Source: Bilabrum cf. latius | Lineage: Eukaryota | Assembly (NCBI GenBank): GCA_965178125.1 | Contig: OZ237739.1 | Span: 930,001-994,000, forward strand | Reading direction: 5' to 3' | Length of the DNA stretch: 64,000 nucleotides | In this document: positions 3-62,792 of the stretch, piece by piece | Position numbering within the stretch: position 1 is the stretch's first letter | Layout: each line of letters opens with the position of its first letter | Made by a program: the position numbers and the translations under genes | Notes under the pieces: model-generated | What the model saw: the letters and a program-made list of their open reading frames with translations, nothing else | Databases searched by the model: none | What the model was told of the DNA's origin: nothing

Positions 3-1427
3 TACGCGAAGGCTGACCTCGGCGGTCAGGACAGTTCCTGCGAGGCTCGGAGCCTGCATGGTTCAGGGCGCTGGGACCGGGACACAGACGCATCCCATGA
101 AGACAAGAGCGCCCGGGGCAAGGTAGCCCGAGGTGACGCTGCATCTCCGGCCCTGCGGGCAGGCATGCCCGAGCTGACACCGCTTGCGGGACCGCGTGCC
201 ATGTCGGGGCACGAGGACGATCTCGCGCTGCCTGGCGCTGCCTCGCTCGCCTTGCCACCGGCCGGTGACGGTAGCAACGCCCAGCCAAGCGAGTACGCTC
301 GATCGGACGGTGGTCGCGAATCCCAATCCCCCGGGGGTCAGGCGCAGCCTTCCTCCAGATAGGACGCCCGATGGGGCAAGGGACTCCCGCACGGGCTGCT
401 GCAGCGAGGCGTGGCTCACGCAGTGTCCAGGACCAGCTCGTATGGAGCCAAGCAAGTGGCAAGGGCGGCGGCGGGGGCGGGTCCATCGCCCCAAACATCG
501 ACTGCAACGCCACCTGGCCCGAGTGGCAGTGACGTGCGCAGGCAGCGGAGTCGCTCTGTTGGCGAGCTGGGCCAGGCAGCCGCCGCGATCGGGCTGCGGA
601 TGGGTCGAATCCGGCACCGAGGGGCTGTCATGGAGGTGCCTGCGGACGAGTATGCCCTGAGGAGCGGGGCCGTTGCGTTCGGTATCTCTCTCACCGAGGC
701 TGTGCGGAGGCCGCAAGGCCCAAGCAGCGAAGGCGGTGCCGTGGGTGCTAGTACTGGCGTGTCTATAAAGGACCGCTTCGGCAGAAGCACAGGCGTGGGC
801 GCACGAGTAGTGGCCTAGCCTCAAGGCGATCCGACTGGCCTACTGGCCCCTACTGGGGACTCTGGTGCTCCTAACACCCATGCGGTGGCCGAGGGCTCAC
901 AGGGTGAAGGTGAAGGCTCCCTTGCCGGTGGAGGCTCCGAGGGCGGGTGCACCGAGGGCACGGGCACCAGCGGCGGGGAGCGGGCCACTTTGGCCACCAG
1001 CATGACGGAAGTGTCCAGGGTGTGGGAGTTTGCCGCTGGGGATCTAGGGGGGCGCGGTGATCCGGGGGACCAGGCGTGGACGGCTGCGTGGGCGGAGCGT
1101 GTGCTGGAGCAGCTGGAGGCGGTGCCGAAGCCTGTCCTGGTCCACTGCCAGACGGGCGCGGCGGCGTGCTGCGTGTGTCTCCTGCGAGCCGCGAGGAAGC
1201 TTGGCGCCAAGCCGAAGCAGGTGCACAAGTGGTCAAGGGATCTGGGTCACTCGCTTGCAGGCCACAGCGACCTTGAGCTCGTCGTTTCCGAGATCCTCAA
1301 GCCAGCGAACCCCGAGATCCTCAAGCCAGCGAACCCCGCGACAGCCGAGATCGCTGCTGCCAGTAGTGATGCCTCTGACGCAGCCAAGAGACCTGCGACC
1401 GGAGTGCGCCCCGTGCAAGGAAGCTGA
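3..1427 (+). CDS. 5'-truncated protein with C-terminal PTP-like/DUF442 (BLH phosphatase-like) domain; TAG read as Gln
   Basis: One frame is open from the window start. ORFs 165-362, 411-818 and 885-1427 are joined by TAG at 360 and 816 and end in TGA. Motif ERVLEQLEAVPKPVLVHCQTG resembles DUF442-type 'PKPVLVHCxSGxR', but the Arg is missing. Confidence 0.65.
1288..1338 (+). repeat. 24-bp perfect tandem duplication (encodes EILKPANP x2)
   Basis: ccgagatcctcaagccagcgaacc at 1288-1311 and 1312-1335. Confidence 0.9.
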
Positions 1428-1504
1428 TCTAGTGTTGTGTGGTATACTAATGCTGTGTTATCTGCCTGCATGGCCATGATTGCTTGCAGTTTGCAGACTG
1501 TGCA

Positions 1505-2267: not shown

Positions 2268-2349
2268 TATGTGCTGATAAGAAGTGGATCGTTGCACAAC
2301 GGCAACTGCGAGCAAATGGGGTGACGAGTTCTTGCTTCAAGTTGCTACA

Positions 2350-5300
2350 ATGGCAATCATTCTCGCCCAGAGCTACCGAAAAATGCTAACAATGTGTGGG
2401 TTCATGCTTCTGTCTATCGCAGCGTTGCGATCCGTGTCGGCCGCGGCCTCGGGAGCCTGTCCTGGTACCCCACCACCCGTAGCTAGCCGGCAACCATGCT
2501 GGTCTTGGGTTTTGGACGACAATGAGGACGGATGTATTGCCCGTGGGTGCTGTTGGGACTCGAAGTCCGGAATTAATCCTTCAAACTCGTCTGGGCATCC
2601 TATCTTGCCAATGTGCTTCGTACCGCCGGGCGAGAACTTCCTGCCTGTCGCAAAGCTGCACGTGATTCAAGGGTGCCATTTTGATGCTGGATTTGCCGAT
2701 ACGATTCAAGGGATTGTTGGGGGAAGGTGGTTTCAGCAATTTTTCCCACGGGCAGCGGCAGTGGGATCGCAGTTGCACGGTAACAGCAGCACGCCAGCCA
2801 AGCTACGGTTTACGGCCCAGTCCTGGGTCGTTTGGCTCTTTTTGAACTGCCCGCCATCGGCTGGCCTGCAGTGTCCCAGCATTGAGCAAATTCAGCAGTT
2901 TAATGCTAGCGTGAAGGCTGGCTATATCACGTGGCATGCTCTACCGATGAACTTCGAGCCCGAGCTGATGACTGCCGGCATGATCGATGCCGCGATCCAG
3001 CTCACGCATCGTCTCGATGACGACTTTGGCCTTCCTAGGAAGACGGTGATGTCACAGAGAGATGTACCTTTCCTCACCCGTGCCGCGATTCCTGCCCTCG
3101 TTCGCAACGGCGTCGACGTTTTGTCGGTGGGCGTGAATGGGGGCAGCACGCCTCCGAACCTCCCGCCTGCTTTCCTGTGGAGGGACGTGCCCAGTAATAC
3201 CTAGGTACTCGTGCTTTTACTGCAGGGGGGATATGGTGGCATTCATCTGTGGAAGACGGCGCCGTTCACGCCAGTCATGCTGCCTGGTTTTGGTGAAGCC
3301 GCGGTCGTGGACTGGCGGGGCGACAACGCGGGGCCGCCGCCAGAGGCAGCAGATCTAATCGAAGACTTTAGCACGCTGCAGCAGCAATTCAACGGATCAT
3401 AGATCGTTCCATCGACCTTTGAGGATTTTGCAGCGGCGGCACGAAGCTTCTACAGGGTGGGGCGACAGGGCCCCACCTCCAGCTCGCAATGGGGTGCTTC
3501 ACCCCGTACGCTGTCCGGCTTCGTGCCCGGCACAGAGGAGTCGACTCCCGCAGTGCGCTGGAACGTGAGCCTCCCAATCATCACGTCCGAGGTGGGAGAC
3601 ACGTGGATCTACGGGGTCCCCAGCGACCCCGTGAAGGTCGCGCGTATGCGTGCAGCCCACCGTTCCAGACAGGCCTGCTTGTTGTCGGGTGCATGCAGCA
3701 TCGACGACCCGAAGCTCTTCAATGCAACAGCCTTTCTGCTCAAGAACAGCGAGCACACTTGGGGCCTAGACCACAAGACAGTCCTTTCGCCCGTTGATGA
3801 GGTGCTCCACCAGAACTGGTCAAACGCCGAGTTTCACGCAATCGCGAGAGGGCTGCCTCCGGCCGAAGACCCTCACCAGCTCACGGAGAAGTACCGGAAG
3901 CTGGCTCGCTCGTGGACAACCCAGCGTGACTACGGCCTAACGTATGCGCTGGATGCGTTGGGAGAGGACCACCCGCTCACTGAAGCGATTCGTGCGGCGT
4001 GGGCGGAGCAAGTGCCGTCGGTTCCACCGCATAGCTCATCACCAGGCCAGTCGCATCCGCAGTCGACAAGAGGCCAGCTTTCACAAAATGCCCCCAGTAC
4101 CTGCGATGAATCCGTTGAATCGGCTCGATTCTACGATCTTGGCTTCCGATGGAAGGTTGGCGTGAACCAGTCTACCGGAGCCGTGTGCTCGCTGCTCGAT
4201 GTGGCCACTGGCACAAACTACGCTGGTGCCTCTGGATGCTCAGCTGGGGGTTCAAGCAACCGTTCTGCGTCTCTGTTTGCTCCACAGTACATGACGTTGG
4301 ATGCCCTGGACTATGGTCTGTACGAGCTCCTCTACAACTACCTGTGGGTGGTCGATTTCATCGTCGGGGACGACTTCGACGACCAGACCAAGCAGGGCAT
4401 CGACAAGTACAATGCCACGGCCGCGCTGCACGACACCGCCTTCTTGGGAGCTTGGATCAGCAATTCTTCTTCGGATGGCAATTTTCTCAAGGAACGGTCT
4501 GCATCCGCCACGGGCAAGACCACCTTCAGGCTCGACATCAAGATGAGCCTGCCAGACGATACCGTGGTGCTAGCGGGGGGGTTTCAGTCGCTCTGGCTCT
4601 CACTCACGGTGGAAGAAGCGTCAGGTGCTTGCGTAGGCAGCGGTGTTAGCTGTAATGTTGATCAAGGCACACTACCACCAAACATCTCGGTCACTCTGCA
4701 GGGCTTCAACAAGACTGCAACGCGCATGCCGGAGGCCTTGTTTCTGCGCATCAGCCCAACCGTCGGTTCTGACACCTCGAACAGGCATCATTCCGATGCG
4801 TCGTTGCCGTCATGGATCCGCGGTGCCGGATGGTGCATGGAGAAGCTAGGCAGCTGGATGCAGTCGTGGCCCATACCGTGGGGAGGCTCCACTCGGCTGC
4901 ACGGAGTGTCGGACGGCGGCGTGGCGTTCCTTCGCTCTGTGGAGGAGAATGGACGTTTCGATGGCCCCGACGAACAGATAATCGACACGTGGGGGCGAGT
5001 GATAGACCGTGCGAGAGCTGTCGGGTCGTCTGCCGCCAACGGCCGGCCCGCTGCGGGCGACGCAGAGGCTCGGCTGCGGTCGTACACCCCTGCGGACGGG
5101 GACAAGTGGCTGAATGGCAGCCTAGTAGCTGGGTCCATTCAAAGCCTTGAGGCAGATGCGTGTCATGCAGCCCTTTCGCAGGGCGCATTGCACGAGGCAG
5201 CGCAGCCCCCCGCCGCCGGATCTTTCAAGCTTGAATCGTTGGACGCGGCCGTGGTATCGTTCGGGCATCCCACCACGTTTGCAGTCCCAACGAATCTACC

Positions 5301-5454
5301 GCCAGACTTTGAAGGTGGGGGCTCTTCCTTTTTGCTCCTTTCCAACGCTTGGGGTACCAACTACGTTAGCGTGAGCCTGGGACAGCCCATGCCGCAGGGG
5401 GGCCCACAGGAGAGTGACATGAAGTGGAGGTTCAAATTCGTCCCGCTTAATTGA
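2350..5454 (+). CDS. Secreted trefoil (P-type) domain + GH38-N-like/DUF5054-like putative glycoside hydrolase (~1,034 aa)
   Basis: Hydrophobic N-terminus; trefoil pattern C..RQPC...C..RGCCWD...CF; motifs 'LHVIQGCHFDAGFAD', 'ITWHALPMN', 'EVGDTWIYGVPSDPVK', 'EHTWGLD', 'NAWGTNY'. Three same-frame ORFs joined by TAG at 3202 and 3400; ends in TGA. Confidence 0.8.
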
Positions 5455-5547
5455 AGCACAGCCCAGTGGTTGTTTGGTTTTGACTTACCAGTACACCTCG
5501 CCGCGGGCGTGATGCTCACCCATAGTCTAACCACTGATGGCAACCTA

Positions 5548-5606: not shown

Positions 5607-5814
5607 GGGCCGGCTGAAACCTTTGTTGCGTGCAGTATTCCACGCAGACCTTTCCCGAGCTTTCGTGATCGATTCCAGGCTAGCATAGCAAAAATTTGAA
5701 ATCGGTAGCCTGTGTATTAACATTCACATTCCATCATTTCGAGTTGAGCAGCCAGTTACATTTCATTGAAGCAGATACTAGGCTGATAGTTTGGACGCTA
5801 TTCGATTTCGTCCC

Positions 5815-8800
5815 ATGCTCCCGCTTTTGCTGATAGGGCTCGCATCAATCGCCACGGGTGATAGTGTATGCGATGTTGGGCCAACTATATTATCCTCCGC
5901 ACAAGGTACCATGCAAGCAGTCGACAAGAGGAATTTTGGGGACCGCAACTGCTCGTGGCTGATTGATCCAAGCCTGGAACCGAGCTCACGCACTCGAATT
6001 CAGCTGTCATGGAAAGCGCTTGAGCTAGTGAACGATAAAGACAAGCCGTTTCCGCCTGGCTACCAGCCGGGGCCGGATGGAGCCTTTCTTGGGGATTGCC
6101 CGTTGGCGTCGATTGAGGTGTATGCGATGAGAAACGTGTCGGCAGACCGGAGCACGCCCTTGCGGGGCATGCAAGGTCGAGTTGCGTCAGGTAACGGTGA
6201 CATTATCATGCGAGTATGTGGGGAGTTAGTAGACCTTGACGCCCGCATCATGGATATCGGGGTGATCGCCCCAGCGGTCAAGGTAGTGCTCCGGTCCACA
6301 GCCCAGGCTGCGATGGCCGTTGATTTTGCGCTAGATTGGTCTGCTACTACGATGGATCCCGGCCCATCACAAGAACCGCAGCCGAGCGCCGACCCAAGCC
6401 CGCCCCCAGACGTGCCAGGCAGCTGCAAGCTGAGTGACTGGTCCGACTGGGGCGCATGCAACGCGGGGTGCGGCATGGGCAAGTAGATCCGCACCAGGGC
6501 CGTTCTGCAGCACGGAGAACCAGGTGCGCCCGCATGCGGCTTTCTGGTCGAAGAGTAGGACTGCCTCGTGCGACCCTGCAATAGCTTGGACGAGGACAGG
6601 AGCTGCTCCTTCCTCGACTGGAACCCGTGGGGCAACTGCACGATGTCGTGCGGTGCGGGTACGAGGCTGCAGACTAGGGACCTGGTCGAGCCGCGGCTGG
6701 GTGCAGGCACGTGTGGACCCATGTACAGGACGAGTGACTGCAATATGAATCCGTGCGAAGAGTTTTCCCCTTGCGAGGCCACCAAGATCATCGAGGGTGA
6801 GGCCTCCGGCGTGGTGCAGATCGGGCACCCCTCCTCCAGCGAGCCGGGTGGGAGTGGCTCGGCGCCGGTGCCCCCTTCTTCAACGTGCGAGTGGAAGATC
6901 ATGGGCAGCTCCTCGCAAGACATCAAGCTGGTTTGGGACTGGGTAGAGATGCCCGTCGTGTTCAACGGGTCCTGTAACCTGCTCACCACCGGAGAGGTCG
7001 AGGCACTGGCTGGCTCCTACAACGGAAGCCTCGACGAAATTGACGCAAGATGCGCCGTGGCTCCTCTCCCGCAGCCACCCACACTCCCTGGCCGCACGGT
7101 CCGCACCTCTGGTGCCACCGAGCTGGTGCTCCGTCTCATCACGCCATCCACAGAGGGTGCTTGGGGCTTCAAGGCTAGCTTCGAGCTCGTGTCTCGAGTG
7201 CAGCCCTCCCATGCCCCCGAGCCCCCCGTAAACTGCACCCTAGGGAACTGGACGCAGTGGTCTGAGTGCAGCGCGGAATGCGGTGAGGGAGTGCAGACCA
7301 GGTCCCGGCCGATCGTCGCCCCCGCCAGGCATGGCGGCTCCTGCCCAGGCCCGCTTGATGAGACCCGGCCCTGTGACGCGGGACCCTGCGGCCACAACTC
7401 AACGGACACCGATTGCATGGTGGGGCCGTGGGGAAACTTTTCATCCTGCTCTAGAGAGTGTGGGGGCGGGATTCAGACCCGCATTCGTCACGTGCTTGTG
7501 CCGTAGAGTGGTGATGGGGCAGCTTGCCCAGCCCTCAACGAAACCAAGTCGTGCAACGATGAGCCTTGCGACCCAACCGGCAGCGATGACGACCCGTGGG
7601 ATCCCAGCGACTTGCCGAGCGCCTGTAGATTTGCTTCCACAGGACGTTCCGAGGCCGTTCACGTCGCCGAGTCCCGCGTGGCAGTGCTTGCTCTCGGCGA
7701 CTACTCCACGGACGGCTCCCCGCCGAAGCACCGCTCCTACCCACAGAACGCAGACTGCGTCTGGTCGGTGACGTCGAGAAGCTACGAGCATGTATGGTGC
7801 CAGCTGGAACACATGAGCACTGCCGTATCTGCCAACTGCGAAGAGGCTGGCGTTGAGATGTGCGATGGCACATACACCGACTGTTCCCCGATCGGTAGAC
7901 CGATTTGTGGCTCGCTCTCTTCCAACATGGTAGCTTACAACGCGACAGGACGTCTTCTTACTGTCCGGTTTTCGTCTGGAGATGAAGTGCCTGAAGGCAA
8001 AGGCTTCAAACTAGTGTGTGGCGCCAGTGTTCCAGTCTACGAACCTCCTGCGAGCCCTGAAGACGCGGCGGTCACGATGCAGATAGGAGTGGACCAGCGA
8101 TTTGAGCAGAACTGGAGGAGGTCCAATCCGGACGGATCTACCAAAGAGCTCACCCATGCGATGGCGACTGGGTTGCAGCGTGACATCATGAGCGTGCTCT
8201 CAGTTGCCTAGTACCGGGTCGCCATCCCTGAGAGTTCCATAGGGCGAACCGATGCGCAATAGGGCATTACTGCTGAAGTTGCGGTACAGCTGCTGCCGCA
8301 AGCTGTGAACACCGCGGTGACCCTGGAGACATCACAAGAGCTGCTTCGGCGACTCCTGGTTCTAGTTGCAGAGTGCCCCGTTGAGGATGGTTCGGATGAT
8401 TTGTGTCCGGAAGGAACCGGGCTGTACGCTGCTAGTCGGTCAGTGTCCAAGTATTTGCAGCCGTTCGTCCCGAAAATCGAGTACGTATCGCCCGCCCAGA
8501 TCGAGCTGAGCACGCAGAGCATCACGCAGCAGCTGCCGAAAGGGGATCGTTCGAAGGCGTCCAGTCAACGGGAAGTCGATGTGCAGGTGTCCAATGGAGG
8601 AGGCCAAACGCTCGTCATTTCAGACATGCGGGTGCTATACCAGGACTCTTCGTCCACGCCGCATTTTTTGACACTTTCGACAGACATGCTTGAAGTTCCT
8701 GCCGGCGAGCACAGGTCATTCAAGGTCATCTTTGACCCTGAACCGGTCCCCGTGTCCAACCCGGGGCCCCTGTTCGCAGTGGTGGAACTGCTTCACCCCG

Positions 8801-10005
8801 TAGTGGATGGACCGCACGCGGTAGCTTGCGAACTTTCGTTCGAAGGCGTGGCCCCAGCTCCCACCAGCGAGCCCCAGGCATCACCCAGCCCGTAGCCAGG
8901 CACGAGTCCCAGCCCCAGCCCCGGTGCTGGCGGCTTAATGCCCGTATTTGACCTCACTAGCATAGCAATCGGAGCAGGCGGCGTCTTTGCGCTGCTAGCA
9001 CTCGCCTGCATGGGATACTGCGTTTGCTGCGGGCCTTGCAAGGGCAAGTGCTGCGGCGCCAAGAAAACCGGAGTGGGTGGCAGCGGGGGTGCTGGGAGCG
9101 GCGGCTCCAACGGAGGTCGTGCAAACTCCGGTGGGTCCTCAAGGGGCGGCCGGGACCGTGGTAGTGAGGATGAGGGTGCGCTGGCTCGCGGTAGGAGCAT
9201 TGGAAGCGACTTAGGTGCGCTGGATGGGCCCACCACTGGCGACTCCACTCGCAGGGATGGGAGGAAGGATGGTGGCGGTGGCATTGAGCTAGGAGATATC
9301 GGCTTGACTGGTGCGACTTCTTCTAGTGGTAGGGGCGGAGACGGGGTGTTCGGAGGGGGCGGTGACAGGCGTGGTAGCGGAGGTGGTGCAAGCGCGAGCG
9401 GAAGGAACGGGGGCTTTTCTGTGTCTGTGCCGCCGATGCGCCCAGGGGCTGAGACCGCGTTCAAGGCCTCGCTAAGCGGCGGCGGATCGAATGGAAGCCA
9501 CGGCTTTGGTGCGTCGTCGAGCTCTTCCGTAGCGTCTGGGTCTGGGTTCGGCGGCAGCGGAGGCGGTGCCCTGGGCGGCCTGTCCCTTGGATCGGGGTCT
9601 TCTCCTTAGGCCCAGGCCCAGGCCCAGACGATGCGGCTGCAAGCGACAGCATCGCTGGCTCCGCAGGAATTCGAGACGAACTGGGCCCAGCTGCACACCC
9701 TGTCCCTTTGGGGCGGCTAGATGCGGCCGGACGCGGCTGCCTCCGCGGATGCCCTCGAGAAAGCCTTGCAACCCGCCGGGATTCTGTGCATGGCGAGCGG
9801 CGAGATCAATGGGGTTCACAAGCACTTCTTCTTTGGGAAGGACGAGAATGGCTCGACTCCGGCAGAGCGGCTGTACATGGCAGAGGCATCAGTCACGCTC
9901 GCGAGCGGCAGGCTCTCCGTGGTGATCAAGGGGCAGGGGCCGTCGTCCCAGCAGTTCGTCAGCGAGTTCAAACGGAGGGTGAGGGGGCTGCTTGCATCTG
10001 AATGA
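5815..10005 (+). CDS. Type I membrane protein: signal peptide, 3 CUB-like + 4 TSP1 repeats, Ig-like domain, TM, Gly-rich linker, C-terminal beta-adaptin appendage-like domain (~1,396 aa)
   Basis: TSP1 motifs WSDWGAC..CG, WNPWGNC..CG, WTQWSEC..CG, WGNFSSC..CG; CUB-like 'YPQNADCVW...GKGFKL'; TM IAIGAGGVFALLALACMGYCVCC. Single frame with TAG at 6484, 6556, 7504, 8209, 8260, 8893, 9607 and 9718; ends in TGA. Confidence 0.85.
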
Positions 10006-10201
10006 TATATTATTGATTGTTTCTACATTCAGGCTGCCGTTTTGATCGCGAAAGCATCGGTGAGTTAGGCACAGGACCTTTGTGGTTGCGACCGCTTGCG
10101 ACCACTTGCGAATCCAACAGCAACATCCAAAATTTGGATAACGCAGCTATTCTCTGCGTGAACACCACACGTTTAACACACATCGACCCTTGTGCGGTCC
10201 G

Positions 10202-48513: not shown

Positions 48514-49065
48514 TCAGCCCTGGTACTACCGTGGCGTTGTTGGATATTCGCGATCGAGGGGAAATCTGTCTGAGATGCTATCTCGAACTTGTCGCAGCGG
48601 CTGCGACAGGCCTTTCCAGTCGTCCCGGGCCCAACAGGTGCACCGCAGTGGCCGCCCTGCAGACTCCTGCAGGCACAGAAAGGGACTCTGAGCGCTTAGG
48701 CTCGAGCAGTAGTGGCCATCCGGGTGTATTATATCTCTCGGTCTGCTTCCGCTGCACGCATAAAACTAAAATGTGCGTTGGATTCCATCGATGTCGCCGA
48801 TGGCTGGACGACCGGGGTTGCTTCCTGCCGATGTGGCTCCCTCTGAAATTATATCACAGCGAGCAGCATTCTAACTTATATCTATCTTTGAGCAAACACT
48901 GCTCATTCCTTTCGTACAATTTCCCAGTATCTCGCCGCTTTCTTCGTATAAGGCTACATCAGTGACGAATCCCTCGAACTGCGCCTGGCTCGCGATAACC
49001 CGCGGCAGCAGGTGTGACAGCTTCAAGCTGTATGCAACGTGCAGTATTGACAGATATATAAACAT
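48514..49065 (-). CDS. Candidate small Cys-rich secreted protein (~183 aa), visible only with TAG=Gln
   Basis: MFIYLSILHVAYSL hydrophobic start; the frame is open to TGA at 48514 through three TAG; 8 Cys; fills an otherwise empty gap. No family recognised. Confidence 0.45.
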
Positions 49066-49279
49066 TATCTTCGTGATTGTACGAAGTGAGCCTGCCAGCG
49101 GCGCCGCGCATAGCAGAAGGGTTGGTGAGCGGAACCAAATGTCGCCCAGGCATATATTTCGCTTGGGAAAGGGGTGGAACGCCGAGCCAACTTTGACATG
49201 CTGAAGTATTCCTGGGAGACAAGGAGACAACTTGCGTTAGAACACTTTATGCAGGTATTTCTAGTTCTGAGTGGCCAGC

Positions 49280-52112: not shown

Positions 52113-52338
52113 CTCCGACAAATCAGTGCCAACGGCAATCAAGTAACGAGCAAACAATCATGAATTTGTATTCTTGTACAGCTCATGCGTATTTTGTTTG
52201 TTAATTAAAACAATTTTGACAGGACTCGGAGCGGTCTAAAAATGCAGCGTTTTCGGCTTAGAAGGCCATAACCCTGCTCGAGAAGAGCTCAAGGACGTGT
52301 ATCTATTAGTTTTATTGAACAGCTACCAGATTGTAGCG

Positions 52339-53064
52339 ATGAACGATGTTCGTAGGCACCTTGAACGAATTCGGCAGCGGAAGCAAGCAGAGAACGAACG
52401 CTTGATTGAATTTCGCCGCAAGAAAGCCAAGTCTTCGAAGGAGCTTCTGGAGGTTGCTGAAGCCGGTGCAGGATCTGAAGCAGCCGCGAGGCGTATGAAG
52501 TTTTACAAGAAAGTCTTCTCGAAAGAACCTGCCGCTGCTACGGTTGGGAGGAAGCGACCGAGAAGCGATATGGAAGCAGCGGACACCGAAAGAACAAGCG
52601 GTGATGAATCCAAGTCGCGCCAAGATGGGGATTATCGCGAAGACGCTGACAATCCCGACCGGAAACGCGGTCGCGCCGAGCACGGCGTAGGAAGAAGCAA
52701 GCGGGGGCCTCACAGCATGTTCGACAGGGAGAAGCGCGCTTACGAAGAAGGGAAAGGTAGCAGAGAGCAAGAGCATGAAGATTACATTCGCCGATAGGAA
52801 GAAAGGGCCAAGAAGCAGCACGCAAGAAAGCGCCTATCAAAGCAGATGCAAAAACGCACCAAGCGCGGGCAGCCACTAATGGGAGTACGAGTCAAATCGC
52901 TCCTAGACAGAATCCAGAGCCGTGACAGCGAGCTGGTAGACAAATTTAGCGAGCGACACGCAGCTTCGGGCGCGGCATCAGCCCAGGCAGTTGCCAAGAA
53001 GAGGCATAGCAAGAAGGGGCCCCGTGGCCGAGGGCGGCATCATCACGCCACGGGCGGCAAGTGA
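52339..53064 (+). CDS. FYV7: Fyv7/TAP26 (CCDC59) family rRNA-processing protein (~241 aa)
   Basis: Basic coiled coil ending in the family motif KRTKRGQPLMGVRVKSLLDRIQ. One TAG at 52795 inside the coiled coil; ends in TGA. Confidence 0.8.
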
Positions 53065-53318: not shown

Positions 53319-56300
53319 TCATTCGTTGCCGCTCTTGGCCTTCAGCAGTCTGTCAAAGTAAGCCGCTCGCGCAGCCCGCCTGGAATCGCCGCCGCCGGCA
53401 CCGCCCGCCTTTTTCCCCGCCGCCCCTGACGACCCCGCCTTGCCTCCACCGGCAGACCTCCCAGACCCAGCGACCCGGGCAGACCCGGACGCTGCCCGCG
53501 CAGCGCCCGCCCCGCTCCCAGCACCCGCTACCATGGAGCCAGCCTGCCGCAGCGAGCTTGCCCGCTTCAAGCCCCCTCCGGCGGTCCCTCCGGCGGCCCT
53601 GGCACCGGCAGCCCCAGCACTAGCACCGGCACGGGACCCGCCCCCCGCACCGACTCCGAGCTTGCGACCACTGCCCTGCGACAGCATAGCCTTCCCGCGC
53701 TCCGAAGCGGATCCGCCACCGACCCTCTGCGCCCTGCCCCACTGCCCCTGCTTCTTGGCCCCTGACCTCGCCCACACGTCCTATGGCTGCTGCGCCTGCG
53801 CGATGGCATCCCTGGTGCCGGCCGTCGTGCCTCCACCCGCAGTCGACGGTGCCATCCCCTCGGGAAACGAGCCTTTGCCCGCCAGCGCCCGCAGGAACGC
53901 CGCATTCCGCTCGATCTCCCTCTCCTTCGCCGCCCTCATCTCGTCGATGGTGGGATTGGAAGACGTCCCCGCGGTCTTGGCCGGGGCTGCATTTGAGGCA
54001 GCCGCCCTGGCTCGGCCCGAAGCGGGTCGAGATCTGCGCTAGCCAGCGCCACCACCCGACTGCATGGCCTTGTCGAGCGCGTCTCGCTTGGGCTTGCGCT
54101 GGGTGGGCACTGCTGGCTTGCTAGAAGCGGTTCCAGCCGAGGCAGCAGCCCTGCCCTTTGGGGCAGTCGCCACACCCGTCCTGGCAGCAGCAGCGGCGGC
54201 GGGAGACCGCCCAGAGGCAGCAGCAACGGCACCGGCACCGGCACCGGCACCAGCGCGCCTACCGGCCACAGGGCCGGGAGAAGACCTTGGGCTACCGCGC
54301 TGCTGTGCACTGCCACCACTGTTGCTGCTAGCACCAGCACCTCTGTTTCGAGGGGAAGTCCTCTTTCCGCCGAGACAGCCAGCAGCAGCAACAGCTGGCT
54401 GCGTGCCGCGAGCTGCGGCTGGCAGAGCTACACCGTCTGCCTGACCCCGTTTCTAAAGCTGCACCCGCCTCCCAGCACCGCGATCTGCTGCGGCAGATGC
54501 CCCTGCTCTCTTCGGACCACTGGTGGAGCTCGCGGCTGTCTTGCTGCCCGTCCTGCGCTGCGTGCCTGCTCCGCTGCCGGGCCTGCTCCGCGCCGGCCTC
54601 GTGGTCTCCTTGGGCGAGTGGCCCGGCGAGGTGGAGCCCGCGCCTGACGGTTTCGATGATGGCCTCGACCTGGCAGAGGCAGGTCCTGGAGCCGCCTTGG
54701 CGCTGCCTCGTGCGGTGCTCCTGCCGCTGCTAGGGCCAGGTGCAGCAGTGACTGACTTGCCCGGAGCTGCTTTACTAGCGTTCCTGCGGTCTGCGGCTGC
54801 TGCTCTGGCTGCTCGTGCTGCAGATGCGCTGCTGCCTTGCCGTCCTGCCTATGATAGCCCCTTCGCCCCGGAAGTGGCCTTTTGCTCCGATTTTTCGGTC
54901 TTCTTACCGCCCTTGCCCTTCTTGGCGGCCTTGACCATCCCGAGCACTTCCTTCCTCGCCCTTTCATTCTCCTGATCGATCCTCTTCTACTCTGCTTCCT
55001 GCTCCTCCGTGGACGGCGGGTACGGCTCCACCCTGTCTCGGCGAGTGAAGCAGCCCTGGCCAGGCACCTCGCAGTGGAAGTACGGGACGCCCTTACACTC
55101 GCCCGAGTGCTTTCCCGAGCCGCAATCCTGCCTCACCTCAACACCGAGCCAAGTCCCCTTGTTGAGGCCCCACACCGGTCCCCTGAACCGGACGAACCCC
55201 ACGCGCCCGTCCGACTTAAAGCGGATGCGGTCGCCGACGTGAAACTTGGGGCCACCCTTTCCAGCGGTTGATGTCGCTGTGGTGTTCAATGGGTCCGCCG
55301 CACCTGCTCCACTCGCAGCAGGCGGTGCGCCTGACTTTGCTTCCGCATCTGCAGCAGAAACAGCAGTCATCGTGGGTGCTGCTGCGGCGGATGCAGCTGC
55401 AGCGCTGGGCAATCCGTGAGCAGACTCGATTTTTTCGGCCGCCTCTGCGTCCCTGTTGAGGGTACGGGCGGCCTCCGCCGCCTTGGCCGCTAGCCTCTCC
55501 CTGTGTGCCTTGGCCTCGTCTGCTGCTGCGGCCGCCGCTGCGTGACCTCCGTCGTCGTCGTCTGCGTGCGCGATCTGCTGCATGCGGATGTGCTCCTACC
55601 TCCACCCATTGGCCGTGCTGGCCGCTACCTTTGCCTCCTATTCCCTGTGCTTCGTGTCCCTGTCCGCTGCCCTCTTGGCTTTCAGGAACTCCGTGCCTTT
55701 CAGCCTTAGCTTCTTTCCGTCCATGGGCTTGACCTTCGCCTTGCGCTCCTCGTCCCTCGCCTGCGCGTTGGCGCACACCAGCTGGTGCTTGGCAATCCGC
55801 CCGCGGTTGAATTTCCTACCGCAATACTCGCACTCCATCCTGCCGTCGTCCCCGCCGTCGGCGAACTCCGGGATGTCGTTCATGCAGTGGATCGCTTTTG
55901 TCGGCTTCTCGAGGAGCTCAGCAAGCGGATCTGCGGGTGGTTCGCCGTCTGCGCCCGCTGCGTATCGTTTCTTGATGTAGTCGGGCACCTTAGACATCAG
56001 CTGGACGCCGGGCTCTGGAGCGGAAGGTGCGGCTGGAGCGCCTGCCGCGCCTCCTCCCGCAGAGCTTCTCGCCCCAGCTCCGCCCTGTCCCCGGCCGCGG
56101 CCCCGACCAGATCGACCACCACGCCCACGACCTCCTGCTTGCCGCCCCCCTCTGCCACTAGACCTTGCTGCCCTGGCTTTCTACTCCTCCTTGAGCTTCT
56201 TGCAACCGGACACGTGCGACCGATACTCATCGTTGCTTACAACAAGTCCGCATACAGGACAATGGGTGGTAGAAGCTTCCACCTGCAAGTCATAAAGGCA

Positions 56301-56485
56301 GAATCGATTGCCATATCCTACTGCAATTCTTCCGAACCATACAGATTTGCATCAGAAACTCGGTTGCACTTGAGCCACGAATGACAGCTTACCTTCGAAA
56401 TACACTGCTTCTGATGGATTGCAAACGAATGTTTGAAAAATTTACCACCACATAGCTCGCAAACTATTGTCTACGGCCTAGGCAT
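53319..56485 (-). CDS. Three C2HC zinc fingers + CAP-Gly domain protein (exons 56485-56393, 56282-53319; ~1,018 aa)
   Basis: CELCGGKF..HQKQC, CPVCG..HVSGC, CEYCGRKF..HQLVC; CAP-Gly 'VGDRI..GRVGFVRFRGPV..GTWLGVE..GKHSG..GVPYFHC'. Intron 56392-56283; about 9 TAG; ends in TGA. Confidence 0.85.
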
Positions 56486-56638: not shown

Positions 56639-59600
56639 ATGAGCACAGCACTAGGTGCTGGTGGGAGCGCTGCTCCGAGGAGTCACGCAGGCTTGTACGC
56701 CCCACCGCCGCGTAAGCTGTGGATTCCGATTGACATTAAGGTGAGATTATTTTCGTCAATGGCGCCGAAACGGGCCAAATTTTTACACTTACGATTACGG
56801 ACAAGCATCGTCTCGTCGAGCTGCCCCCTACTTCTGGTGTCCGCTCACGTTGCACGCAGTTGCGATGGTTCCAGTTTCTTCCTGTAGAAGACCTAGCGAA
56901 CTGTGGGGCTGTTTGCAAAGCTTGGGTAGTCCTTAGTTCTAGAACAGCTGATGCTGAGTGGAGAAAGACGACTGGTACCGAACCACCCAAGCGCGTTGCG
57001 CGATTAACGAAATTGAGATTGCTCCGCCGGATCAGGTAGCCGCTGCTGCCCGAGAACATGGGATGGCTTCTCACAATGGCCGCAGGCAGACGAGGTAAGA
57101 GGATTGTACTACCGCTTCTGCTTGCGGAAATCCGCGCCATGGTTGGATTCAATCGAGTAGTGCACGACTAGTTTGCTGCCGAGTGCGAATGCAACCTTGT
57201 TTCGCAGACATGCTCCCGTACATGCACAAATTATTGCTCATGCGAGACGATATAAGGATGCAACTGGGCATACCAGGCGCGTTCTTTCGGTCAAAACGAG
57301 CTCGCAGCCCCTATTTGGACCTGCCACCGCCTGTGCGAGCCATCTTTGAGCCTCACACGGAGCCGGAGCTCACCCACCACGTCGACTGGGGACACGCCAC
57401 GCCGCTCACCCGTGCAGTCTCAACCGGCAACGTAGAAGCGGTGCACTTGCTCCTGATGTTTGGCGACACTCCCAATCACAGGGACGCCAGGGGCCGGAGA
57501 CCCATCACGGAGGCGGTGCAACAGGGGGACGTCAGGTCCCTCGAAGCCCTCCTGGGCAGGGTGCCGCTGCGGGCGCCCAAACATCCACCTCACCTGGCCA
57601 CGCGAATGGGCCTTTTCAAGAGGAGGATTCCAGGGGCCGGCACGCTGCCGGCCTGGAGGAGGGGGGAGTGGGGCCTAAAGGCTTTCGAGGATGAATCGCT
57701 CGCAGATGGGACGGACGGCGTCAGCGCCTGGGAGAGCAAGGCGGCCGCCGTGCTGGCCAAAGAGGCGGCGGTGCCGGAATGGGAGAAGGAAATCGGATCG
57801 ATGGGCAGCGGGGGCGGTACTCCTGGCGAGATAATGCTGAGCGCGCTGGACCGCAGGAAGAAGGAGAGGCAGGACGCCATTCGAGAGGCCAGGGGAGACG
57901 GCAGGTACTCGGCGTGGAGCGACGGGCTGGATCTGGGCTGCTTCTGGAGCTCTGTTGACACCAGCGTGGGGATAGGTCTGGAGCGAGACCCACAGGCCAT
58001 GATGGAGGTTCTTCCTCTGCGTGTGCCCGGCGGTGGTGCTGGTGATGGTGCTGGGGGTGCTGGGGGTGCTGGGGGTGCTGGGGGTGCTGGGGGTGCTGGG
58101 GGTCAAGGCCGCGCCGAGGACGCGGTGGCAGCTGGTGGAAACGCTGGCGGAGATGGAGAAGACGAGGATGCGGGGGATGCCATTGAGGCTCCTCGCGATG
58201 CGGCGGCGGAAGCGAGGGCAGCTGCCGAGGCAGCTGACTTGGAGGCACAATAGGAAGGCAGCACGATCAACCCAGACTACGCCAAGCACATGCGAGCCGT
58301 GGCTGACCTCTTGCCGCCGTGCGAGCTGGAATTTGCGACGTTGGTGGGAATCAAGGCAGCAAGATCGGCCAAGTAGCGGGCGGCGGAACAGCGAAAGTAT
58401 GCAGCCATGCGAGCTGCCGGCATTGACGTGCACAAGCTACACGCCGAGAAGCAGGGCCACACAGGTGCTGCTGTGGCCGCAACTGTTGCCGGTGCATCCA
58501 GTGGCTACGCAGCCAGAGACCGGCGACTTGACCACATTCACCCTCGCATGCCACCGATGCCTGATGAGGGCAGCATTGCCGCGCTGGCCTCTGCCCAGCG
58601 GGCCAGGCTCAACACGCCGCAGTCGGACGGCAAGTCGGCTGTCCTGCTTGCGGTAGAGAAGGGAAGGAACGCGCATCTGATGCTGCTCCTCTCGCACCAC
58701 TGTCCCGCAGATCTGGCTGCCGCTGCCGTGCCCCCTGTGTTCCCTAGGCCAGAGGTGGACGAGGATGGCAACCAGAGGCCTCCCCCACCCCCTCCCCCAG
58801 TCACGCTGGAGCCGCCCGGCGGCGAGTCAAGAGGCGATCCCAGGGACAGAAGGCTCAGGAGCTTTGCGGGAGAGGCCTTGCGGTCCATTCCCGAGGCCTA
58901 CGAAACACTGATAACGCCCGGAAGGAGGCACCGTGCGGACCCTGATGCGTGTCCCACTGGCCAGAACACGCCGCTGTGCCTTGCCTGCGAGAGGGGCGAC
59001 GGAATTGCCGCTAGCCTGCTGCTGCACTGGGGCGCAGACACGAACAAATCAGGTCGCAAGGAGGCCTCTCCTCTGCTGCTAGCCGCTCTGAAAGGGCACG
59101 ACCACGTGCTCTCTCTGCTACTGAGGGTGAGCCTGCCGGAGAGATACGCGAGGGCAGTGGGCAGGGCCATAGAGGTCATTCGAGCGCGGTACAGGGTGAA
59201 GCGAGGCAGGAAGGGCGCAGGGGCTGCGGTTGGAGGCGACGAAGAGGATGCCACGCCGCTGGGCTCCGCAGTTGGAAGCGTTGGAGCACCCTTTCAGGCG
59301 GTGAAAGTGGACCCACTGCCGGGCAGGGCGCGCTTTGAAGCGGCGGCGCAGGCCGCCGATCTCGCCCTTCGCTTCATTGAGGAAGTCACGAACAGAGCGA
59401 AGGCATCTAGTGCCGCGGGTGGGAGTGGTCCGAGCAGGTCGGCAGAGGCCAAGGAGTCGGTGCGAGCCGCGCGCGATGCCGCAGCGTCAGGCGCGGCGGG
59501 ATCTCAGTCAACAGCGGAGAGCATTCTGCAGAGATTGCTGCAGGACAGGCTCAAGGCGACAAACATCCCTGCCGCAGTTCGCCGCGCAGCCATGGCGGCA

Positions 59601-62600
59601 GCGTCGGAGCAGGCCGCCAAGGAGCGTCGAGAGGATTCACTAGCGATCGACTGGCAGGCTGGGGACAGAGAGGGTGTGCTCTTGGCCCAGAACAAGGTGA
59701 AGCGCAAGCAGTGGAAGCTGTGGGAGAGCACGGAGGTTGCTTGGGAGAAGGGCTTGCCTGGCGTGCCGCCCATCAATCCGTTCCACGAGTCGGCTCATGT
59801 GCAGGCGCGGCGGGAGGCGCAGGAGGCGGCAGGGGATGACGACGATCTTGGCGGAATTGGGGGCGGTGCAAGCTTAGAGCCGGCGCGAGGTGCGGGGGAG
59901 GAAGAGGGAACGAGGCGCAAGGCGAGGGGGGCGCAAGAAGCAGAGGTTGTCACGACGTGCGAGCCCGCTACGGAGCAGCTGAGGCGGTTTGCCTGCCGGT
60001 TGATCACGGGGGACGACGAGGACGGCCACACTAGCCTCAAAGTGGAGCCGACTGGTGACCCGCCCGAACCGCCCGGCTGGCTCTGGAGACGCTTCGGGCT
60101 GGAGCGCAGGCTTCGATTGCTTCTGCGGAGATCCCGCGCCCTCAATGCACCGGCCGGACTAGTGATCGGCCGGGAGCCGATTGAGGTTGACCTTGAGGAC
60201 GAGAGCGGGTACTCTCCCCTGTTCCTGTGCGCTTCTGCGGGGAATGCCGACGCTGTTTCAGTGCTGCTTGCCGCCGGGGCAGACCCGCTGCATGCTACAA
60301 AGAGGGGTAAGAGCGTGCTGTACGTGGCCGTGGAGAAAGGCTTCGCCAACGTGGTGGAGGCACTGCTCCCATACATGTCGCCGAGGCACGTGCGGCAGAA
60401 GACAAAGTACGGCACCGACGTGATGCACGCTGCAAAGAAGCACGGCAGAAGGGAGGTCATGCGCCTCTTGGAGGATTTCCTGGCCCGCGAGGATGGCAGA
60501 GAGGCGAGGCGGCTGGAGAAGATGGAGGCGGAGAAGCGGTGGGGCCCGGGGACAGCCAGCGACAGGGCGCAGTGGGCAAAGAAACAAGCCTCTGCGATGG
60601 AGCGGCTCCGGACAGGCAGCCAAAGGTAGCTGGTGCCGGGCTCTGGCGGCTCCGGGGGCAGCACTCCGCAGGCTGGCGGTGGAGCTAGCGCCGCTTCAGG
60701 TTCCGGTAGGGCGCAATCAAGGAGCAGAGACCCGCGACCTAGGGCTAGAGCTGGTGCGGGAGCGGGAGGCGGCAGCAGCAGCGGTACTAGCCGACGCACT
60801 GAGAGTAAATCGAGAGGCGGCGGATCCGATGGCATCAAGGCTCGCAGCAAATCTGTCGACCCGATGGCGAAGGTGCGGGCCCTCCGTACTGCGGCAGAAA
60901 GGTCCAGGAAGGAAGCAGAAGAACGAGAAGCGGCCAAGCGTGCCTCTGCCACTACAGGTGCGGTGGTTGACTTGGGAATGGCCATGGGACTCGGCATGGA
61001 GGCAGCAGTGGCGAAGCAGCGGGGTCCCGCCCCACCAGGCACTAAAGCATCCAAGCGCAGCCGTAGCGTCGCGCCACAGCGCAAGGCAACCCGGCGGCTT
61101 GCCCCATCGAAGCCACAAGCTGCACCTGTGCGCAAGCCGCCCACCGGCCGCAATGATGGCGGTGTGCTTAGCAGGGGGTCCTCCCAGCCCAACTCGCCGA
61201 AGGTGGCAAGCGGCGCCGGCCATGCAGGGCCTGCAGCCTCCGAGCAGAGCAGCAGCAGTCGCCTGCAGAGCAGCCCCGTCAATGTCGGCGGCCCGCCCCC
61301 GAGGACGAGGGTCAGCCTTAAGGAGGCACAGGAAGCGCAGCAGGCAGCTGCGTAGACCCATTTGGCCGCTGCATCGACTTTATAGCAGCAGTCGGGAGGG
61401 AGGGATGTTCCTTCTGCCGGTAGCGCGCGCGATGTGAGTGGCCTGGTGAAGGGCGGGACGCTCAAGCGAGCGTCGAGCGCGGGCATCAGAGAGATGGCAA
61501 GGATGGAGCTGGCTGCCGCAGCAGAGGGTGCGGGAGAGGGCAAGGAAGAAGAAACAAGCGCTCCGCCACATAGCCGTGGTCCGGCTGCCAGCGGCGCCAG
61601 TGGAATGAGCAAAGCAGAGCAGCGCCGGGCTGCTAGGGCAGCGCATTTCGACCGTTTGTTCGCCGCCAAACCTTCGGGGCGCATGCAGCCGCAGCAGAAC
61701 GAGCCGAGCTAGTCATCTGGCCATGCCGGCTCGCAGTCGGCAGCAACTGCAGCATTAGCTGGCGCATCTGCAGCACTCGCTGGACTCCCTGCCCTCTCGG
61801 GAAGGCCAAGCTCTCCGCTTCATACTCCTAGCCACGAGACACAAGCCCGACTCATCTAGAACGATGCCGCACCAACGCAAGGGCATGGTGGTGCTGTGAT
61901 ATCTCCCCTGTAGGCTGCCAGGCAGCCAGCAGGTCCTGCCGATCCTAATCCTCAGCACCGCAACAGCTCGTCTCCCATCGCGGCAAGACCGGACAGCGGG
62001 TCTGCCGCAGAGAGCAGGAGGCGATAGGTAGTCAGCGCGCGGTCAGCTGCCAGTGCAGGAGCCAGTTCTCCCATTGGAGGGGCATTTCGGACTGCGAGTG
62101 GCGGCGCGTCTCCCTCCGCGCTGGCCTTGCGTGCGGCTGAATCTGCCGCGTACAGCAGCCGGGCTGGCATGGCTCGGGCCAGCAAGCGTGCGGCAAGCGG
62201 CGGTGCCAAGGGCCGCGGCAGCAACGCGGTGGGTGGGCCACCACTAGTGCCGCGTCGAGCGTTCGCAGAGCTAGAGGCTGACTTCCACGCTGCTGATGCG
62301 GTTCCAGGAGCCAGGCAGCAGCATGCTGCCCGAGGCAACAGCGTCGGGGGTGCCAAGCGAGTCAAGGCCAAGAGAACAGCGCAGGGGCACAGCAGAGAGG
62401 AGTCGGCCGCTGCACCACTCTCCCTTGGTGTTGGCGGCGTTGGCCTTCAGGTGTCGGGACAGGGCGAGTCCGAGGGGGGCGGCTGGGTTGGTGTGGGGGA
62501 TAGGGTGGCAGAAGAGAAGCAACGAGAGCTAATGAAGGAACGGCGCGCGGAAGAGCGGCTGAAGCAGCGGATCTAGGCGGGCGGAGCCAGAGCAATGATG

Positions 62601-62792
62601 CCGGGGGGAGGGGGTGGTGCGCCAGTCAGGATTCCGGCTGGAGGTAGCCGCGAATCATCGCCCATTCAGGCAAAGCCAAGAAAGAAGAAGGACACTCTCA
62701 AGCTCGCTGCGATGGCCTACGGCGTGGGAGGCAAGAGCAGCAAAAAGAAGAAGAAGAAAGCGCCTCACAAAAGGTCGCTTCTCATGTTGTAA
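56639..62792 (+). CDS. F-box + ankyrin-repeat protein with long low-complexity tail (exons 56639-56740, 56860-57094, 57208-62792; ~1,970 aa)
   Basis: Spliced F-box IPIDIK|LRWFQFLPVEDLANCGAVCKAW; ankyrin repeats (ATPLTRAV, GKSAVLLAV, NTPLCLAC, GYSPLFLCA, GKSVLYVAV). About 11 in-frame TAG; ends in TAA. Confidence 0.8.
58047..58100 (+). repeat. (GGTGCTGGG)6 coding minisatellite (Gly-Ala-Gly)
   Basis: Six perfect 9-bp units. Confidence 0.9.

Follow-up and report, generated by a model that had tools for sequence, protein, structure and literature searches.

What does the triplet TAG mean in a stretch of DNA where gene after gene appears to run straight through it? Nuclear reassignments of stop codons are rare, and UAA and UAG nearly always change jointly. 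The window considered here, that is, the whole stretch of 64,000 nt that was analysed, comes from Bilabrum cf. latius (contig OZ237739.1, positions 930,001-994,000, assembly GCA_965178125.1). A first-pass annotation had proposed that its genes use UAG as a glutamine codon while UAA and UGA are kept as stops. This core claim is upheld by frame lengths, stop-codon counts, mRNA and the Gln sites of a close relative.

Under the standard code, the longest stop-to-stop frame in the window is 750 aa. Reading TAG as sense opens frames of 3853, 2502, 1979, 1897, 1425, 1411, 1085, 1057 and 1010 aa (stop to stop). By comparison, the longest TAA/TGA-free frame scored in each of 100 simulated first-order Markov sequences had a mean of 421 codons and a maximum of 663, versus the 3853 observed. 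Reading TAA as sense instead leaves the longest frame at 750 aa, equal to the standard code, and reading TGA as sense gives frames of at most 936 aa. The TAG-sense reading yields 18 long non-overlapping frames that represent 17 genes, and across their 19,617 codons TAG occurs in frame 123 times, while TAA and TGA each occur 0 times. In these stretches, the two off-frames contain 175 and 173 TAG, 67 and 70 TAA, and 273 and 416 TGA. TAG is present in 16 of the 18 frames and in 15 of 17 genes, the gene count given in the first-pass annotation and reached here after two frames were joined over an intron; its figure of about 120 in-frame TAGs and its observation that genes lack internal TAA and TGA and end in one or the other likewise agree with these counts. 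TGA terminates 14/18 frames and TAA 4/18; one of these four TAAs is intronic and three close gene frames. Protein domains run on across the TAGs, for instance in the kinase, the TSP1 repeats, GT61 and PGAP1. UAG is a sense codon in the window genes, and the behavior of UAA and UGA as stops is supported at the scope of the window.

These counts bear directly on the possibility that UAG and UAA are both reassigned to Gln, as in the ciliate-type code (UAR=Gln, table 6), with UAA scarce through high GC. UAR=Gln is the commonest variant code in the relevant passages of PMC11687900, and TAA is indeed the rarest stop triplet on the forward strand of the window (197, versus 540 TAG and 794 TGA). However, with Gln-type codon usage of TAG 123, CAG 537 and CAA 195 (UAG making up ~14% of Gln codons), the TAG:CAG ratio of 123:537 and the 195 CAA lead one to expect ~45 in-frame TAA, where there are none. 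Treating TAA as sense brings no gain in frame length either (3860 codons with TGA as the only stop versus 3853 with TAA also a stop), and the three gene frames closed by TAA run counter to it. Joint reassignment is a highly improbable reading of this DNA.

The in-frame TAGs are distributed along both strands. A frame with an open 5' end (3..1427, +; 2 in-frame TAGs, TGA end; no Pfam family) is followed by a gene for a trefoil and DUF5054 protein (2281..5454, +; 2 TAGs, TGA end) and by a gene encoding four TSP1 repeats, a CUB domain and a beta2-adaptin-appendage-like C-terminus (5770..10005, +; 9 TAGs, TGA end). In the latter, the TAG at 6484 had been singled out earlier as a Gln-type position; it is in frame, and Q occupies the matching place in the sister repeats and in 3/5 solved TSP1/spondin repeats. 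The JmjC examples of the same annotation fared less evenly. They belong to a gene for an ankyrin and weak JmjC/Cupin_8 protein (10142..14419, +; 7 TAGs, TGA end), and 14009 and 14261 fit two TAGs of its C-terminal JmjC region, but 14261 faces an Asp of JMJD6 in a weak alignment and is not diagnostic. Next comes a gene of ~3050 codons, whose exon 1 (15321..21236, +; 19 in-frame TAGs) reaches protein-kinase subdomains I-II at its end and whose exon 2 (21376..24603, +; 4 in-frame TAGs, TGA end) carries an AGC-type kinase domain. The 139-nt GT..AG intron between them (21237..21375, +), predicted from the sequence and from kinase continuity, contains the TAA closing frame 15321-21260 and joins that frame to frame 21346-24603. 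The kinase has a ~750-aa insert between DFG and APE, and both motifs lie in one frame with 3 TAGs between them. The gene for a glycosyltransferase of family 61 (GT61; 24796..26772, +) has 9 in-frame TAGs and a TGA end. On the reverse strand lie a giant PGAP1-domain (GPI inositol-deacylase-like) gene (26913..34421, -; 19 in-frame TAGs), whose final codon is TAG with TAA immediately after it, and a 500-codon gene (34861..36363, -; 4 in-frame TAGs, TGA end) for which the atlas lead is a mitochondrial ribosomal protein S35/Bot1p-like product. One PGAP1 TAG, just after the catalytic His, faces Q in structure 8k9q, a single site in a weak sub-alignment.

Further along, a 3853-codon Ala/Ser/Gly-rich frame (36823..48384, +) with 20 in-frame TAGs and a TGA end matches no Pfam family. 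The TAG at 36692, cited earlier as a KOW example, does fall inside a frame, namely the short frame 36563-36967 upstream of this giant gene, but that frame is only plausibly its exon 1. A 240-codon frame (48514..49236, -; 3 TAGs) with lower GC3 and no family is a doubtful gene. The spliced gene at 49207..50950 (+) has introns at 49459-49592, 49698-49830, 49929-50029 and 50124-50231, all with GT..AG joints in transcript contigs, and the frame of its final exon (50222-50950) contains 3 in-frame TAGs and closes in TAA. The remaining genes encode a 373-codon product (51036..52157, -; 3 in-frame TAGs, TGA end), an rRNA_processing family (PF08524) member (52240..53064, +; 1 in-frame TAG, TGA end), a CAP-Gly and zf-C2HC protein (53319..56351, -; 8 in-frame TAGs, TGA end), in which the TAG at 55596 noted previously is confirmed to be in frame, and an ankyrin-repeat protein (57099..62792, +; 10 in-frame TAGs, TAA end) with upstream introns at 56738-56858 and 57092-57206 in transcript contigs.

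A TAG in genomic DNA need not be translated if the genes are pseudogenes, if the assembly is in error, or if the triplet is spliced out or edited from U to C. The window sequence is matched by DNA run X1 and by three other runs. GT..AG splice joints of 94-132 nt occur in contigs of runs X5, X6 and X7 and in none of X1; the RNA label of these runs is a guess, X5 is marked 'probably DNA', and clear cDNA origin is confined to the spliced contigs. A comparison with transcripts, as advised in the first-pass annotation, found 27/28 in-frame TAGs of 48500-62800 covered unchanged and with 0 gaps by the listed contig pieces, which are assemblies rather than raw reads and drop minority variants. The single difference listed for these contigs (61344 G>A) lies away from any TAG, and 11 TAGs sit on contigs in which a splice joint of their own gene is present. 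For instance, a single spliced transcript contig (53150-56280, joint 56280 to 56391) carries 8/8 TAGs of the CAP-Gly gene and shows 0 differences. The TAGs are retained in mRNA, neither spliced nor edited out. Nothing was found in favor of untranslated TAGs, and contigs could in principle mask minority edited forms. Against them stand the strict exclusion of TAA and TGA from the same frames and the frames of 92% and 51% identical orthologues, which are open only under TAG-sense. The chance that these TAGs go untranslated is minimal.

Which amino acid does UAG then specify? Apart from Gln, the candidates are Glu or Lys, whose codons GAG and AAG are one-base neighbors, Leu, as in the rhizarian exLh, and Ser, as in Scotinosphaera; precedents for UAG=Leu, UAG=Ser and UAG=Glu are found in the relevant part of PMC11687900. 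A close relative is represented by 12 ORF fragments with 92.4% identity over 2877 aligned non-TAG positions. Facing the window TAGs, it has Q at 10 sites, E at 2 and K, S and D at 1 each (n=15), with L, Y and W each at 0/15; the binomial probability of Q at 10/15 sites by chance is 1.5e-11. Log10 likelihoods, calculated with a substitution table derived empirically from these alignments, are -15.7 for Q, -27.2 for E, -27.7 for K, -41.6 for L and -42.2 for Y, which places Gln ahead of E by 11.5, K by 12, L by 26 and S by 39 log10 units. E, K, D and S nonetheless face 5/15 TAG sites, and TAG sites are less conserved, with Q in the relative at 10/15 of them versus 100/109 CAG/CAA sites (Fisher p = 0.014). 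The relative's fragments end at a window TAG in 7 cases, at a window Q in 3 and at a window E in 1 (1/12 not assessable), so that its in-frame stops meet Q three times and E once. Within the window itself, the 373-codon gene contains a tandem repeat (51104..51252, -; 48 nt x 3.1 copies, 99% matching) whose sole difference is CAG in copies 1 and 2 versus TAG in copy 3 (codon 51129-51131).

Deeper comparisons are less telling. Codon inference for GT61 used orthologues of 90%, 57%, 51% and 47% identity. Q occupies GT61 site 556 in the two nearest homologues (47%, 57% identity), whereas 37/45 distant homologues have L or M there (L 28, M 9, Q 2). E is frequent opposite TAG in the 47-57% identical relatives, and over 50 GT61 homologues not one of the 9 GT61 TAG sites has Q as its most frequent residue. 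A tabulation of residues aligned to TAG, proposed in the first-pass annotation, is thus informative for the close relative (Q 10/15) and uninformative for deep GT61 homologues. No other reading of UAG comes near Gln in support, which is good from the close-relative alignments and the tandem repeat; another amino acid is very unlikely.

A subtler alternative is that UAG means Gln yet still terminates in some contexts, giving an ambiguous, position-dependent code. Such codes are known in other eukaryotes, ambiguous stop codons having been described, in the accounts drawn on here, for Condylostoma, karyorelict ciliates and, in the case of UAA, Blastocrithidia. In several window frames the last in-frame TAG lies a short distance from the TGA or TAA (1, 4, 13, 23, 31 and 37 codons), the PGAP1 frame has its TAG-TAA finish, and fragment P0009 of the close relative ends at a window TAG nine codons before the end of that frame. 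However, a TAG terminator is required by 0 window genes, 18/18 frames being closed by TGA or TAA, and several of the last TAGs lie inside beta2-adaptin-like, JmjC and GT61 domains with coding sequence continuing after them. Moreover, 16 such distances are too few to separate an exponential mean of ~65 from one of ~150 codons. Context-dependent termination at UAG is unlikely here.

The use of UAG as sense extends beyond this organism. The code is probably common to a whole clade because L001, a metagenome sequence of 7247 nt and 55.7% GC with a GT61 orthologue 51% identical, also needs TAG as sense; its GT61 is a single 738-codon frame only under that reading. Seven window GT61 TAG sites face P, TAG, A, K, E, Q and E in L001, and five L001 GT61 TAG sites face TAG, H, R, E and V in the window, one TAG site being shared. 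A TAG in the L001 HECT domain aligns to Q of HUWE1, a weaker, single-site indication. Genes here and in related organisms have to be annotated with table 15, because calling under the standard code shatters them into fragments. Database entries for these genes are fragments of 80-400 aa.

Taking the evidence as a whole, there is a probability of about 90% that this nuclear DNA belongs to a GC-rich eukaryote that has introns, uses UAG as a normal sense codon for Gln and ends its genes in UGA or, less often, UAA. By analogy with other UAG- or UAR-to-Gln lineages, as treated in part of PMC5304391, UAG would be decoded by a tRNA-Gln that descends from tRNA-Gln(CUG) and whose anticodon, CUA, would pair with UAG and not with UAA. 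The eRF1 N-domain would have lost or weakened its recognition of UAG, to which the GTS, NIKS and YxCxxxF region motifs are tied in the same source (PMC5304391). No tRNA genes were found in the 64-kb window or in L001, and the eRF1 gene is absent from the window.

The first-pass annotation had also envisaged an independent origin in a bicosoecid-like organism, a claim that holds in part. Ciliate genomes tend to be rich in AT and to have very small introns, and the window, with 57-65% GC (about 60%), introns of 94-139 nt and 17 genes in 64 kb, is not ciliate-like. The best named GT61 homologue belongs to Cafeteria roenbergensis/burkhardae (33% identity, E 4e-30), ahead of Leptophrys and Thecamonas; together with the mitochondrial-ribosomal-protein lead it argues weakly against a fornicate, but a single gene at 33% is too little for placing the organism. 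The 64-kb window contains neither rRNA nor marker genes. The odds are about even that UAG-only Gln arose independently in a lineage belonging to neither ciliates nor fornicates, free-living, mitochondriate and GC-rich, and perhaps a deep bicosoecid stramenopile relative, with a code that would be clade-wide (the 92% sister and 51-57% GT61 metagenome relatives) and TGA as its main terminator.

Only a handful of lineages are named with UAG alone turned sense in the relevant passages of PMC11687900 (Dec 2024). A further lineage would be an independent data point on how eRF1 loses one of two purine-ending stops, and would bear on the acceptance of a CUA anticodon by GlnRS and on base composition as a driver of code change. 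This case combines a GC-rich, TGA-terminating, intron-bearing genome with transcript data and environmental relatives. An independent GC-rich origin, if true, would conflict with 'codon capture' under AT pressure as it is usually pictured. If culture DNA and RNA data exist, as the run records suggest, the organism would be a tractable system for studying how eRF1 gives up UAG alone.

The type of code is already known, and the lineage may be new for it; no literature report of a UAG-only Gln code was found for such a lineage. PMC11687900 (Dec 2024) lists, in its relevant passages, Iotanema, Protocruzia and two phyllopharyngean ciliate lineages as having this code. In Iotanema spirale (Metamonada: Fornicata; Panek et al. 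2017, PMC5304391), as in the window, UAG alone has turned to Gln and UAA is not sense, and the mechanism predicted there, a tRNA-Gln(CUA) with an altered eRF1, is the one proposed here. In contrast, the main stop in the Iotanema data of PMC5304391 is UAA, versus TGA in 14/18 window frames, and those data are transcriptomic only, whereas here there is genomic DNA with its GC content and introns. Protocruzia tuzeti and the two phyllopharyngean lineages share table 15, with UAG=Gln and UAA and UGA as stops (PMC11687900, same passages), but the window, at ~60% GC and with introns near 100-140 nt at 17 genes per 64 kb, is unlike a ciliate. UAR=Gln (table 6), reported in the same passages for many ciliates, hexamitin diplomonads, some Ulvophyceae, Streblomastix and Amoeboaphelidium protococcarum (PMC11687900), resembles the window in turning a stop to Gln and in a Gln tRNA for UAG, as proposed here; UAA is sense in those lineages, unlike in the window genes. 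Finally, the rhizarian exLh (UAG=Leu), Scotinosphaera (UAG=Ser) and the ciliate PL0344 (UAG=Glu, UAA=Lys), also drawn from those passages (PMC11687900), uncouple UAG from UAA as the window does, but with amino acids that the close-relative alignments disfavor here by 26, 39 and 11.5 log10 units, respectively.

The longest stop-to-stop frame in the window, whose GC content is 57-65%, encodes 750 amino acids under the standard code. Reading TAG as sense opens frames of 3853, 2502, 1979, 1897, 1425, 1411, 1085, 1057 and 1010 amino acids; across the window, TAA as sense leaves the longest frames as they are under the standard code, and TGA as sense gives 936 amino acids at most. In simulations of 100 first-order Markov replicas of the window, the longest TAA- and TGA-free frame averaged 421 codons and reached 663 at its maximum. 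A greedy choice of 18 non-overlapping frames, comprising 19,617 codons, contains 123 in-frame TAG codons and, as the first-pass annotation had described, no TAA and no TGA before the terminators, which are TGA in 14 cases and TAA in four (one of these TAAs lying inside a 139-nt intron). Over these stretches, the two off-frames contain 175 and 173 TAG, 67 and 70 TAA, and 273 and 416 TGA codons. If both UAA and UAG encoded glutamine, about 45 in-frame TAA codons would be expected (TAG:CAG is 123:537, with 195 CAA). None is found, and with TAA also read as sense the longest frame grows only from 3853 to 3860 codons, a gain of seven. The code within the window is therefore UAG-only, UAA and UGA are not sense codons, and reassignment of both UAR codons to glutamine is rejected.

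Profile matches on the TAG-sense frames extend across the TAG codons in many protein families. According to Pfam, these include a protein with four TSP1 repeats, a CUB domain and a beta2-adaptin-appendage-like domain; ankyrin repeats with a weak Cupin_8/JmjC match; Pkinase (15321-24603, +); Glyco_transf_61, or GT61 (24796-26769); PGAP1 (26913-34421, -); rRNA_processing; CAP-Gly with zf-C2HC; and Trefoil with DUF5054. The possibility that the frames are pseudogenes or assembly errors was considered and rejected. The 139-nt GT..AG intron (21237-21375) interrupts the protein kinase domain after subdomain II, so that frames 15321-21260 and 21346-24603 belong to one gene and the genes number 17; after this merger, the earlier tally of 15 among 17 genes with in-frame TAG is reproduced exactly. 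The merged gene comprises about 3050 codons. Its long N-terminal part contains hydrophobic segments, matches no Pfam family and precedes an AGC-type kinase domain carrying an insert of about 750 amino acids between DFG and APE. Both motifs (DFG near residue 120, APE near residue 890) align with solved AGC kinases and share one frame running over three TAGs, which fall inside the non-conserved insert and are uninformative on the residue. The 3853-codon frame (36823-48384, +) has no Pfam family and is rich in Ala, Ser and Gly; its first exon may be the short frame at 36563-36967 upstream, where a KOW-like motif and the TAG at 36692 are found. A similar short C-terminal motif, Arg/Ala-rich and then F-D-R-L, is present in the CAP-Gly protein (about 53322-53400, -) and the ankyrin protein (about 61500-61620, +), which suggests a putative C-terminal module common to these two neighbouring, divergently placed genes.

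Which amino acid UAG specifies can be read from a close relative, represented by 12 protein-database ORF fragments (P0001-P0007 and P0009-P0013) from short contigs. Three genes were compared (15321-21257, 24796-26769 and 26916-34421), with identities of 85-99% and an overall identity of 92.4% over 2877 aligned non-TAG positions. Facing 15 TAGs of the window, the relative has Q ten times, E twice, and K, S and D once each; the chance probability of Q at ten of 15 sites is 1.5e-11. A substitution table derived from the alignments themselves yields log10 likelihoods of -15.7 (Gln), -27.2 (Glu), -27.7 (Lys), -41.6 (Leu), -42.2 (Tyr) and -54.5 (Ser), and the readings of UAG as Leu, Ser, Glu or Lys, all below Gln, are rejected. 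The fragments, which are standard-code ORFs, end exactly at a window TAG seven times, at a Q three times and at an E once (one is not assessable); the relative thus has in-frame stops as well, often at the same sites or at window glutamines. Within the window, the sole difference among the copies of a tandem repeat (51104-51252; 48 nt x 3.1 copies, 99% matches) lies in one codon, which reads CAG, CAG and TAG. The TSP1 TAG at 6484, cited in the first-pass annotation as a Gln-type position, indeed faces Q in the two best sister repeats and in three of five solved TSP1/spondin repeats. At site 556 of GT61, both of the nearest homologues (at 47% and 57% identity) have Q, and in a weak sub-alignment with a solved GPI inositol-deacylase, a PGAP1 TAG aligns with Q after the catalytic His region. 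The earlier observation is thereby confirmed and its reading of UAG as glutamine, with UAA and UGA as stops, is supported; we put the probability of this reading at about 0.9.

The same code is found beyond one genome. A scan of metagenome contigs with the GT61 C-terminal alignment recovered L001, a contig of 7247 nt and 55.7% GC whose GT61 orthologue is 51% identical to that of the window. This orthologue (2898-5111, +, ending in TGA) forms one 738-codon frame only with TAG as a sense codon; the standard code breaks it into pieces of 231 and 180 codons. In-frame TAG also occurs in the other two L001 genes, a HECT ligase gene (2-1321, +) and a TPR-like 597-codon frame (5455-7245, -). A HECT-domain TAG faces Q in HUWE1, and K or F/T in other HECT proteins, which makes it, like the PGAP1 site, a weaker single-site support for Gln. 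One TAG occupies the identical alignment site in the window and L001 GT61 genes. The neighbour of GT61 in L001 is not the window's PGAP1 gene, so synteny is not kept. Many other GT61 database hits are fragments of 82-175 amino acids, as would be expected of genes likewise broken by TAG. The TAG-sense code is common to a clade.

Several comparisons are contrary or uninformative with respect to the residue. An exhaustive search with GT61 as the query protein yielded 51 hits, and when 50 of these are aligned, none of the nine TAG columns has Q as its most frequent residue; site 556 in this deep alignment has L in 28, M in nine and Q in two of 45. A PDB sequence search with this protein found no match, and a word-based protein search returned one fragment only. 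The window GT61 TAGs face P, TAG, A, K, E, Q and E in L001, and the L001 TAGs face TAG, H, R, E and V in the window. The JmjC TAG at 14261, likewise proposed as a Gln-type position, aligns to an Asp of JMJD6. Relative to the close relative, ten of 15 TAG sites are conserved vs 100 of 109 CAG/CAA sites (Fisher p = 0.014; with TAG-to-stop matches included, 17 of 22, p = 0.06), and the replacements at TAG sites are E, K, D and S. TAG appears to favour weakly constrained, polar positions, as expected for a codon re-entering genes after reassignment.

UAG, in addition to encoding glutamine, may still serve as a terminator in some genes. In several frames the last TAG lies 1-37 codons before the terminator, and the PGAP1 frame closes with TAG followed by TAA (26913-26921, -). 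The C-terminus given by this frame is tentative; in the close relative, fragment P0009 ends nine codons earlier, at a TAG.

The TAG codons are retained in transcripts. The whole window stretch occurs in each of four runs from a single sample (organism A, the probable source); three runs from two further studies, which carry two different organism names, contain 0.84, 0.62 and 0.51 of its words. Runs X1 (DNA), X5, X6 and X7 were compared over 48500-62800 as assembled contigs, which hide minority variants; none of the runs is recorded as RNA, X5-X7 are labelled RNA only by guess, and these three were counted as transcript-bearing by splice joints alone, X5 being flagged 'probably DNA' except for its spliced contigs. 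Eight joints skipping 94-132 nt (seven GT..AG, one CT..AC) occur in X5-X7 contigs and none in X1, so these runs contain spliced transcripts. The first-pass annotation had held that transcripts lacking the TAGs would speak against its reading. In this region, 27 of 28 in-frame TAGs are covered by contig pieces, with no other letter and no gap. One contig that bears the 5' intron joint of the CAP-Gly gene also includes all eight of that gene's TAGs, and a contig with four splice joints includes three further TAGs. Removal of the TAGs by splicing, or their complete editing to CAG, is therefore excluded for these genes. The sole listed difference in the region, 61344 G>A in one run, is away from any TAG. 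Contigs longer than 3 kb are identical (0 differences) between runs from three studies that name three organisms; a single species may have been given different names, or a flagellate may have been growing along in other cultures. X1 contigs break at the 48-nt tandem repeat (51161-51223) and at about 58065-58108, likely assembly breaks at repeats.

With regard to lineage, the window contains no rRNA gene and no marker gene. Its composition, contig size and intron length are not ciliate-like. The best named GT61 homologue is from Cafeteria roenbergensis/burkhardae (33% identity, E 4e-30), followed by Leptophrys vorax and Thecamonas trahens. This agrees with the earlier suggestion of a bicosoecid-like lineage, but a single gene of such low identity leaves the lineage unplaced. 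A 500-codon gene (34861-36363, -) has no Pfam hit, and its TAG-free stretch resembles mitochondrial ribosomal protein S35/Bot1p clusters (Atlas 0.92, 204/256 features), a lead only; Atlas matches gave family leads without useful taxonomy. This predicted likeness is a weak argument against a fornicate, whose mitochondria would be reduced. An independent origin in a lineage neither ciliate nor fornicate is plausible yet unproven, and we consider the odds roughly even.

UAG is read through in many long genes and corresponds to glutamine. ARAGORN found no tRNA gene in the window or in L001. According to PMC5304391, CUA is the only anticodon that reads UAG without UAA. By analogy with what is established there for other lineages, decoding would involve a tRNA with anticodon CUA, most simply derived from tRNA-Gln(CUG) by one change, a GlnRS that accepts this tRNA, and an eRF1 with an altered N-domain that would no longer efficiently recognise UAG; for the eRF1 of Iotanema, PMC5304391 reports the substitution T32G.

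A full-text literature search, conducted mostly outside subscription journals, returned no UAG reassignment for a bicosoecid, a stramenopile or a GC-rich flagellate; given that coverage, an earlier report from such a lineage may exist. Among the codes described in PMC11687900 (December 2024), UAG encodes Leu in a rhizarian and some ciliates, Ser in Scotinosphaera and, together with UAA as Lys, Glu in one ciliate. The same source lists UAG-only reassignment to Gln in Iotanema spirale, Protocruzia tuzeti and two phyllopharyngean ciliate lineages, so the code itself is already known. The window lineage appears to be a further, plausibly independent, case, and its code is of the NCBI table 15 type, like that of Iotanema, Protocruzia and the phyllopharyngeans.
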